DNA of 64,000 nt, from positions 14,371 to 78,370 of the forward strand of contig JBCBSC010000012.1 of assembly GCA_039819385.1 (NCBI GenBank), read 5' to 3'. The DNA is from Pseudomonadota bacterium (GTDB lineage: Bacteria > Pseudomonadota > Gammaproteobacteria > Steroidobacterales > Woeseiaceae). A model generated the notes under the pieces. It ran no database searches. It was not told the DNA's origin and worked only from the letters and a program-made list of their open reading frames with translations. Of this stretch, positions 62,273-62,583 are shown one piece after another (the first letter of the stretch is position 1; every line of letters begins with the position of its first letter). Position numbers and translations under genes: made by a program.

Positions 62273-62583
62273 TGGTGGGCCCGGTAGGACTCGAACCTAC
62301 GACCAAGGGATTCACTGTACCCATCCGTTTCCGAATGGAGCGGACTATCTCATCACCCTCGACCGGATCGTTAGGGGCGGGACGCTCTAGCCTGTTATTA
62401 AGGACACTGAAGTCCTCAGGTAGTCTCTGCACCGTCCGGCGGTGTACCGCCGGCTTGGCTCAGGGTTGCCAACAGCCGCGCTGCTAAGGTTTCCCTGAAT
62501 TCATCCCGTACTGCCCGACAGCTTTCGCCATCAGCGCACCATTTCGATGAGTCCCCTGCTCTAACCAACTGAGCTACAGGCCC
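62273..62583 (-). tRNA. ileX: tRNA-Ile(CAU) (ileX-type, lysidine tRNA) split by a 234-nt intron; exons 62583..62547 and 62312..62273, encoded CCA
   Basis: The joined exons read GGGCCTGTAGCTCAGTTGGTTAGAGCAGGGGACTCAT+AATCCCTTGGTCGTAGGTTCGAGTCCTACCGGGCCCACCA and fold as a canonical 77-nt cloverleaf. G1-C72 rules out an initiator. The anticodon arm and variable region resemble E. coli tRNA-Ile2 rather than tRNA-Met. Confidence 0.85.
62313..62546 (-). ncRNA. Group I intron (IC3-like, ORF-less) in the tRNA anticodon loop
   Basis: Inserted between U36 and A37 and ends in G. Contains GAATTCAGGGAAACCTTAGC, GGCAACCCTGAGCCAAGCC and GGTGCAGAGACTA, which match conserved core strings of the Azoarcus tRNA-Ile intron as I remember it. 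GNRA-capped helices are present. Confidence 0.85.

Follow-up and report, generated by a model that had tools for sequence, protein, structure and literature searches.

The window analysed here, a stretch of 64,000 nucleotides (nt) from the Woeseiaceae contig JBCBSC010000012.1, carries on its minus strand the two halves of a tRNA-Ile(CAU) gene separated by an insert that resembles a group I intron. This locus raises two questions: whether the split gene still yields a working tRNA, and to which lineage of bacterial tRNA introns the insert belongs. For the first, there are three possible variants: the intron could be removed by its own catalysis, it could depend on a host protein, or the locus could be a decaying relic. 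For the second, an earlier note on this DNA, made from the letters alone, had pointed to the tRNA-Ile(CAU) intron of Azoarcus and had regarded both the intron and its host as unusual. Very probably, the locus is a functional tRNA-Ile2 gene (the ileX orthologue) that is interrupted, between U36 and A37, by a group I intron of 234 nt lacking an open reading frame (ORF). This reading draws on the anatomy of the locus, a covariance-model match, covariation and distribution among relatives.

Anatomy of the split gene

The 5' exon (37 nt, 62583-62547) is GGGCCTGTAGCTCAGTTGGTTAGAGCAGGGGACTCAT, with the anticodon CAU at its end, and the 3' exon (40 nt, 62312-62273) reads AATCCCTTGG...GCCCACCA, also written AATCCCTTGG...GGGCCCACCA. 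The insert (62546-62313) starts with CGAAAT, ends with CAGTG and is exactly 234 nt long; the junctions, ...GACTCAT/CGAAAT...CAGTG/AATCCC, hence fall between nucleotides 36 and 37, that is, at position 5 of the anticodon loop. The insert contains no ORF and encodes no homing endonuclease.

The Rfam model Intron_gpI (RF00028) matches 62558-62321 of the minus strand along its full length (model positions 1-253 of 253) with 69 bits, above the gathering score of 50 (E = 2e-15), so that a chance resemblance is excluded. This is the sole Rfam hit within the window; the introns of two relatives score 77.6 bits (L005) and 73.6 bits (L056; L-numbers denote the loci retrieved in our scans). When the exons are joined, ARAGORN recognizes a 77-nt cloverleaf with the anticodon CAT. 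At default settings ARAGORN missed the split gene altogether; with introns allowed it found both halves, but mis-registered the splice site as 'Gln(ctg) i(36,234)', since it assumes an intron at 37/38. The relatives' loci were likewise mis-registered, as Gln(CUG) or Arg(CCG). The splice boundaries were re-derived by the U-1/omega-G rules instead of the ARAGORN registers.

The anatomy proposed in the earlier note is borne out: the group I intron follows U36, with the U.G wobble, the GUG guide and omega-G in place. The gap has exactly the predicted length, the three quoted core strings (GAATTCAGGGAAACCTTAGC, GGCAACCCTGAGCCAAGCC and GGTGCAGAGACTA) are present, and the GUG placed a few nt into the intron is found at positions 8-10. 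Two of the proposed checks, a significant covariance-model score and a comparative P1-P9 fold, gave positive results as well (the latter is described below).

In 5,426 complete E. coli genomes, the spliced tRNA is matched best (84.4% over the full length) by a 76-nt gene annotated as tRNA-Ile. The anticodon of this E. coli tRNA is CAT, which identifies it as the lysidine-type tRNA-Ile2 (ileX/ileY). In its acceptor stem the spliced tRNA of the window has C4-G69 and C5-G68, which are TilS determinants in E. coli. As judged from its sequence and from its place downstream of rpoD, orthologous to that of E. coli ileX, the host gene is tRNA-Ile2 (CAU, lysidine type) rather than tRNA-Met or tRNA-fMet.

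Secondary structure of the intron

From the Rfam alignment and an alignment of the family we derived a model of 73 base pairs, comprising P1, P2, P3, P4, P5, P5a, P6, P6a, the P7 pseudoknot, an extra hairpin, P8, P9.0 and P9 (Table 1). The pairs were counted on an independent MAFFT alignment (A2) of 42 gamma-type sequences; this gamma-only alignment was used because MAFFT misaligns the beta and gamma 3' halves in the mixed alignment (A1). In the window intron all 73 modelled pairs are canonical. Over the 42 sequences, 92.3% of the cells are paired, compared to 32.6-45.3% with the partners slid, 31 of the 73 pairs have changed on both sides, and none of 500 shuffles reached any of the five measures.

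Double-sided changes are seen in P5a (4 of 5 pairs), P6a (5 of 7), P9 (6 of 7) and P9.0 (1 of 2; the pair 206:233 is AU in 17, GU in 15 and GC in 10 sequences), in addition to P2. The core behaves differently. All four P1 pairs are invariant in 42 of 42 sequences (conservation with no covariation), C1-G7 closing loop L1; P3 (99.7% paired), P4, P6 and P7 (100% each) are invariant too. As P1, P3, P4, P6 and P7 do not vary in the clade, their support is conservation. P4, however, is compensated in comparison with the Azoarcus-type introns (UCAGGG/CCCUGA versus UCGGCG/CGCCGA). The terminal omega-G (G234) is invariant in the clade, as are U-1, the GUG guide and J8/7.

Introns of subgroup IC3 are small, have P2 without P2.1 or P5abc, and carry GNRA tetraloops L2 and L9 with receptors in P8 and P5. 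The window intron lacks both P2.1 and P5abc. Nearly all members of the family have a GNRA tetraloop as L2 and GAAA as L9. The internal loop of P5 (CCUUAG/UGUUGG) resembles the 11-nt tetraloop receptor CCUAAG/UAUGG. A hairpin at the junction between P7 and P3' (J7/3) lies outside the textbook description of IC3.

Table 1. Features of the split tRNA-Ile2 locus. Coordinates are positions in the window; helix positions in brackets are intron positions.
Feature	Position	Strand	Basis
tRNA-Ile(CAU) 5' exon, tRNA positions 1-36, to C34 A35 U36	62547..62583	-	direct reading and in-silico splicing
Group I intron, 234 nt (intron position n = window position 62547-n)	62313..62546	-	RF00028 and the 73-pair model
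P1 3' strand with internal guide G8-U9-G10, pairing with exon C34-A35-U36 (U36.G8 wobble)	62537..62546	-	Rfam alignment
P2 (13-20/25-32), L2 = GAAA tetraloop	62515..62534	-	8 of 8 pairs with double-sided changes
P3 5' strand (39-45) and P4-P5-P5a-P6-P6a domain (49-116)	62431..62508	-	homology; P5a and P6a covary
P7 5' strand (G120, bulged A121, G122-A126)	62421..62427	-	GAGACUA pairs with UAGUCC (200-205) in 42 of 42
J7/3 hairpin ('P7.1-like'): outer stem 127-130/153-156, inner stem 131-135/142-146, 3' bulge U147-A152	62391..62420	-	
P3 3' strand (163-169) and P8 (171-191)	62356..62384	-	P3 99.7% paired
P7 3' strand (200-205), P9.0 (206-207/232-233), P9 (209-215/220-226), omega-G (G234 = 62313)	62313..62347	-	
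tRNA-Ile(CAU) 3' exon, A37 to encoded CCA	62273..62312	-	direct reading; 77/77 match to the uninterrupted tRNA of L181 and L199
Terminator-like hairpin and T-run after rpoD (AAGCCGGGCTTTGCCCGGCTTTTTT)	63175..63199	-	read by eye
rpoD 3' part, running past the window edge, upstream of and co-oriented with the tRNA	63224..64000	-	NCBIfam NF004208

The extra hairpin between P7 and P3'

The hairpin (CCUG-AGGAC-UUCAGU-GUCCU-UAAUAA-CAGG, intron positions 127-156) directly follows GAGACUA. It is present in all gamma-type members and absent from the Azoarcus-type introns, where GAGACUA runs straight into P3'. Pairing of its inner stem reaches 100% over the 42 gamma-type sequences, and 3 of its 5 pairs have changed on both sides. 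The outer stem does not vary within the gamma clade, but compensatory changes are seen outside it: GCGG/CCGC in Azonexus (L046) and in Paludibacteraceae (L105), GUGG/CCAC in Elusimicrobia (L062). The constant feature of the hairpin is its 3' bulge UUAAUNA.

Two alternative folds were considered and rejected. If the second GGCUAG (intron positions 155-160, before P3') were the true P7 strand, the hairpin would be an insertion in J6/7; this GGCUAG, however, varies in relatives (GGCACG, GGCTCG, GGCAAG), while GAGACUA is invariant. For the isolated hairpin ViennaRNA prefers a continuous 7-bp stem, UGAGGAC/GUCCUUA (-9.5 kcal/mol). The fold with the outer stem and the bulge was retained on account of compensatory changes in the outer stem of L046, L062, L105 and seed sequences of the alignment by Williams (see below), and because the pair U129:N148, required by the continuous stem, fails in Dyella.

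Insertions are concentrated in the terminal loop of the hairpin, where stems of 15-50 nt are added in L084 (6820-7146), L087, L020, L049, L031, L023, L108, L110, L111 and L095; such tolerance would be expected of a peripheral element. Most likely, the hairpin braces the tertiary fold from the periphery. Other variations were observed as well: L023 has an additional 40-nt insertion in loop L1, and the introns of L066 (Aminicenantes, 351 nt) and L116 (Omnitrophota, 319 nt) carry two different hairpins at J7/3 in place of the single one with the UUAAUNA bulge.

Comparison with known tRNA introns

Both the Ile2 host gene and the insertion at position 5, with U-1 and omega-G, are as in the Ile2.5Ug type, represented in the seed alignment by Azoarcus, whose intron has no hairpin at J7/3 (Williams 2020, bioRxiv 10.1101/2020.01.27.920355). 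With the Azoarcus-type Ile2 introns the window intron shares the tRNA-Ile2 (CAU), insertion after U36, the U-1.G wobble, the GUG guide, omega-G, the core strings from P3 to P7, GNRA loops L2 and L9 and the lack of an ORF; the locus is rpoD-linked in betaproteobacterial relatives, too. The 3' half is different. The Azoarcus-type introns are 202-222 nt long and GAGACUA continues directly into P3' (GACGG...), whereas the window intron has 234 nt and a 30-nt hairpin at this place, a different P3' (AGCGUCCCG), a different P8, and GAUGAGAUAGUCC instead of GAAGGCAUAGUCC at J8/7-P7'. None of the traits of the Azoarcus sub-lineage (about 205 nt, GAGACUA-GACGG, GAAGGCAUAGUCC at J8/7-P7') is found in it. 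In BLAST comparisons, Azoarcus-type introns (L101, L090) align with the window intron only over positions 46-126 (44-52 bits), whereas for hairpin-bearing introns of other hosts the alignment extends through the hairpin, P3', P8 and P7' (77-98 bits).

The closest counterparts of the hairpin are found at other insertion sites. The consensus structure of the Williams seed alignment (10.1101/2020.01.27.920355) has annotated hairpins between P7 and P3' in Lys.2Ug, Asn.4Ug, Phe.2Ug, Leu.1Ug and tmRNA introns. In the seeds Lys.2Ug Dba165, Asn.4Ug Pam37, Phe.2Ug Mba55 and Leu.1Ug Mga42 the hairpin stands directly after GAGACUA and has a 3' bulge of the AAUAA type; in Leu.1Ug Mga42, ccug...uaauaa...cagg is identical to the window hairpin. 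These seeds also share with the window a P4 of the AAUUCAGG type, GCAGAGACUA, P3' AGCGYCC and J8/7-P7' AUGAGAUAGUCC. They differ in residing in other tRNAs and at other anticodon-loop positions, while the window intron occupies the classical position 5 of Ile2.

Judged by sequence, then, the intron occupies a site of the classical Ile2.5Ug type, while its ribozyme body is that of the hairpin-bearing sub-lineage and not of the Azoarcus one. The close kinship to Azoarcus that the earlier note had read from the matching strings is not supported, as these strings are the shared group I core and the 3' half comes from a different sub-lineage. The note was right in remarking on a longer 3' domain than that of Azoarcus, the reason being the conserved extra hairpin together with the different P8.

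The tRNA-Leu(UAA) introns are of the same family and also reside in the anticodon loop, and our core pattern retrieved them in Burkholderia, Eremiobacterota and Bdellovibrionales; they differ from the window intron by the tRNA, the position (between U34 and A35) and the absence of the J7/3 hairpin. The subgroup IA introns (phage T4 td, Twort) reportedly have helices P7.1/P7.2 between the P7 5' strand and P3'. These are unrelated in sequence to the element in the window, where one short hairpin with an A-rich bulge is added to the core of a small tRNA intron.

Distribution of the split gene

Relatives were collected with the degenerate core pattern CAACNNNGAGCCAAG N5-35 GTGNAGAGACT in one genome per GTDB species, yielding at least 120 matches. 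At least 66 other species have the same arrangement, GACTCAT-intron-AATCC.TTGG. These fall into two length classes. Short introns of the Azoarcus type (202-222 nt; at least about 15 species) occur in Betaproteobacteria (Rhodocyclaceae, Comamonadaceae, Rubrivivax, Limnohabitans). Long introns (228-316 nt; at least about 51 species) occur in Gammaproteobacteria, including Woeseiaceae, Steroidobacteraceae, Dyella, Rhodanobacter, Lysobacter, Salinisphaeraceae, Arenicellales, Acidiferrobacterales and others. When spliced in silico, 66 of the 67 listed loci (the window included) give a CAT tRNA, the exception, L071, being cut by the end of its contig. Among the matches listed, the closest pre-tRNAs (87-89%) belong to metagenome-assembled genomes (MAGs) of Woeseiaceae (L056, L037, L005, L082).

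The last result agrees with the gammaproteobacterial host that the earlier note had assumed, although its marker for this, the rpoD-ileX synteny, is not diagnostic: rpoD adjoins the split tRNA in gamma and beta loci alike. An unusual host is not supported, given that at least about 51 species of Gammaproteobacteria share the split gene, and the description of such introns as rare is not supported either: 5,292 intron-split tRNA genes of 21 site types were found in 80,413 bacterial genomes, Ile2.5Ug being one of the four classical types, all of them labelled IC3 in the reference database, with the distribution given by phylum only (Williams 2020, bioRxiv 10.1101/2020.01.27.920355). The genomes where tRNA-Ile2 is 'missing' because of a group I intron were listed as Betaproteobacteria, Desulforudis, Isosphaera and Singulisphaera, with no Xanthomonadales- or Woeseia-type gammas among them (tRNAscan-SE 2.0, PMC8450103).

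The same core was also observed in other tRNAs or at other positions: an apparent tRNA-Thr(UGU) split after U36 in an uncultured gammaproteobacterium (L103, MFD03804), CAU tRNAs split between U33 and C34 (L026 and L121, Verrucomicrobiota; L076, Fimbriiglobus), and tRNA-Arg(CCU) split after U36 (L085, Ottowia; L070, Paceibacteria). Cyanobacterial-style tRNA-Leu(UAA) introns are common in bacteria of the Burkholderia group (Burkholderia, Paraburkholderia and Mycetohabitans; L006, L011, L032, L074, L078, L088, L089, L096, L109) and in Eremiobacterota/Vulcanimicrobiota (L002, L012, L024, L047, L054, L081, L086, L106).

Intron-less alleles and the origin of the intron

A survey for intron-less alleles, also suggested in the earlier note, was fruitful. 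A metagenome scan for the unsplit junction (at least 120 matches) yielded, among the matches listed, two loci, L181 and L199, with an uninterrupted tRNA identical to the spliced product of the window at 77 of 77 positions. This tRNA scores 74.5 bits with the Rfam tRNA model, ARAGORN assigns it the anticodon CAT, and no intron is found in it by Rfam. In L181 it adjoins an RpoD C-terminus 98.8% identical to that of the window (rpoD DNA, 85.8%). In the relatives with split genes, the identity of RpoD to the window is 98.8% (L005), 98.4% (L037) and 97.2% (L082). As split and unsplit loci share the same range of RpoD identity, the presence of the intron is patchy among the closest relatives.

Such patchiness would be expected if the intron is not an old vertical resident but a mobile element, acquired recently and repeatedly by reverse splicing or by recombination of whole tRNA segments, and displacing the Azoarcus type or coexisting with it. 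The Azonexus MAG (L046, 851-1161), a betaproteobacterium, has a hairpin-bearing gamma-type Ile2 intron of 291 nt with an extra 3' extension, while other Rhodocyclaceae (L101, L029, L090) carry an Azoarcus-type intron at this site, which hints at lateral exchange; in the window, rpoD and the tRNA are separated by a 640-nt spacer with near-repeats of the junction between the rpoD end and the tRNA start, also in line with mobility. On the other hand, the intron has no homing endonuclease gene, and intron similarity broadly tracks the groups of hosts (GCG 3' ends in Dyella and Rhodanobacter, short P8 in Steroidobacteraceae), which fits vertical descent with occasional precise loss. The RpoD C-terminus, being 91.9% identical even in E. 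coli, is too conserved to resolve the order of descent. We thus regard the mobile origin as a real possibility, albeit one with the odds somewhat against it.

Still more tentative, and in its entirety rather unlikely, is the combined reading that one and the same phosphodiester bond in the orthologous rpoD-linked tRNA-Ile2 was colonised by two ribozyme lineages of distinct structure, the Azoarcus type in most Betaproteobacteria and the hairpin-bearing type in Gammaproteobacteria and Azonexus, and that the latter is still moving or being lost between nearly identical hosts without a homing endonuclease.

Proposed splicing and decoding

From the sequence and its fold we infer that the window intron is self-splicing; the lysidine modification and the role of the hairpin are likewise inferences. 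The precursor would fold into the P1-P9 group I architecture, with the exon C34-A35-U36 pairing with G8-U9-G10 of the intron and forming the U36.G8 wobble in P1. A free guanosine, presumably bound at the G122-C204 pair of P7, which by homology would be the guanosine-binding pair, would attack the 5' splice site. The terminal G234, placed by P9.0, would then take over the same G site, and the 3'-OH of U36 would attack the 3' splice site, producing the intact 77-nt tRNA. Finally, TilS would turn C34 into lysidine, allowing the tRNA to read AUA. It is plausible that the decoding of AUA (20 of 223 Ile codons in eight ORFs of the window) depends on splicing.

The ribozyme could be genuine and nevertheless inefficient alone, requiring in vivo a host protein or chaperone, with the hairpin being a protein-binding platform and not an RNA brace. 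Many group I introns do need protein helpers (PMC3984707), and such a protein could recognize the UUAAUNA bulge, which is conserved and single-stranded. Yet the related small tRNA introns of Azoarcus and Anabaena are established to self-splice in vitro (PMC3984707), the conserved GNRA loops L2 and L9 and the receptor-like internal loop of P5 suggest a tertiary scaffold made of RNA only, and the large insertions in the terminal loop of the hairpin are what a peripheral element would accept. Dependence on a protein hence seems improbable to us, if less so than decay of the locus. That the gene is a pseudogene with an inactive intron relic, AUA being read by another tRNA-Ile2 or by tRNA-Ile3(UAU), is very hard to maintain: although the absence of another CAU tRNA in a 64-kb view says nothing about the rest of the genome, the exons are perfect (they agree at 77 of 77 positions with an uninterrupted allele that looks functional), each of the 73 pairs in the model is canonical, compensated pairs and unchanging catalytic elements extend over 42 or more species, and the Ile2-intron genomes had been flagged because no other Ile2 gene was found in them (tRNAscan-SE 2.0, PMC8450103).

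Several points weigh against a functional split gene with a self-splicing intron. For this clade, splicing is so far a prediction from sequences. The core helices P3, P4 and P7 owe their support to homology and the comparison with the Azoarcus type, without covariation within the clade, and P8, whose length varies and which is therefore poorly aligned, is 48-63% paired in the MAFFT alignment. The counts from the genome and metagenome scans are lower bounds from an arbitrary sample (at least 120 matches each). ARAGORN found no second CAU tRNA within the window, but the 64 kb in view leave room for a second Ile2 gene or an Ile3(UAU) gene elsewhere in the genome. With all this considered, the split tRNA-Ile2 locus is real and, on the evidence of its sequence, almost certainly functional.

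Neighbourhood of the split gene

The RpoD fragment matches NCBIfam NF004208 with 590.8 bits (cutoff 555), and its reading frame is open up to position 64000. The gene order is the same as in E. coli K-12 (rpoD-mug-ileX), where ileX is uninterrupted. A hairpin similar to the terminator-like one is also found 3' of rpoD in L199, and an extended -10-like element, TGTTACAAT, is located at 62712-62720 (minus strand), about 130 nt upstream of the tRNA. Together, the hairpin and this element suggest that the tRNA is transcribed from its own promoter; a simple scan for promoter and terminator consensus sequences gave nothing relevant and reported neither of the two.

The tRNA leader with the first 11 bases (AAAGTGtGGGCCTGTaGC, 62573-62590, minus strand) is repeated about 90 nt upstream (AAAGTGaGGGCCTGTgGC, 62663-62680, minus strand). 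Both copies are preceded by GACGAC/AAGACG, resembling the rpoD-stop/tRNA junction of the intron-less L181 (GAAGACTAGAAAGTCA followed by GGGCC). The near-repeat was noticed by eye and was not reported by an automated repeat search; it may be a scar of a rearrangement that made the 640-nt spacer.

On the other side, an ORF of 176-183 amino acids (61697-62248, plus strand), convergent with the tRNA, ends 25 nt from its 3' end. This ORF has no NCBIfam or Pfam match, and it is also called as a gene on a Logan contig (L123). Elsewhere in the window (G+C content 62%) ARAGORN calls an 83-nt tRNA-Ala(GGC) at 51562-51644 (plus strand), while the Rfam tRNA model finds nothing at or above the gathering threshold in the window; the call could be spurious or could mark an atypical tRNA.

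Significance

The Ile2.5Ug intron is an already known type, common in the bacterial group of the window, and as such the find is fairly ordinary and opens no long-standing question. It is mildly interesting in two respects, the ribozyme of a non-Azoarcus type with a conserved A-rich-bulge hairpin, and the patchy presence of the intron. The picture given in reviews, where only cyanobacteria and a few alpha- and betaproteobacteria host tRNA group I introns, is outdated, with at least 51 gammaproteobacterial species having the split gene. The clade offers dozens of natural variants of an approximately 230-nt tRNA intron with one extra, clearly delimited hairpin, suitable for comparison with Azoarcus. 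If the reading with two ribozyme lineages is true, the locus would be a natural system for endonuclease-free intron mobility, by reverse splicing or by exchange of tRNA loci, and the hairpin-bearing intron would be a new compact scaffold, in which part of the tertiary bracing seen in Azoarcus is taken over by the hairpin and its A-rich bulge.

As standard tRNA finders miss the split gene, genomes of Woeseiaceae, Steroidobacteraceae, Dyella, Rhodanobacter and their relatives will seem to have no AUA decoder, although this tRNA is essential. Inference of the codon capacity and of the tRNA set in such abundant soil and sediment bacteria should hence take into account that the gene is present but split.

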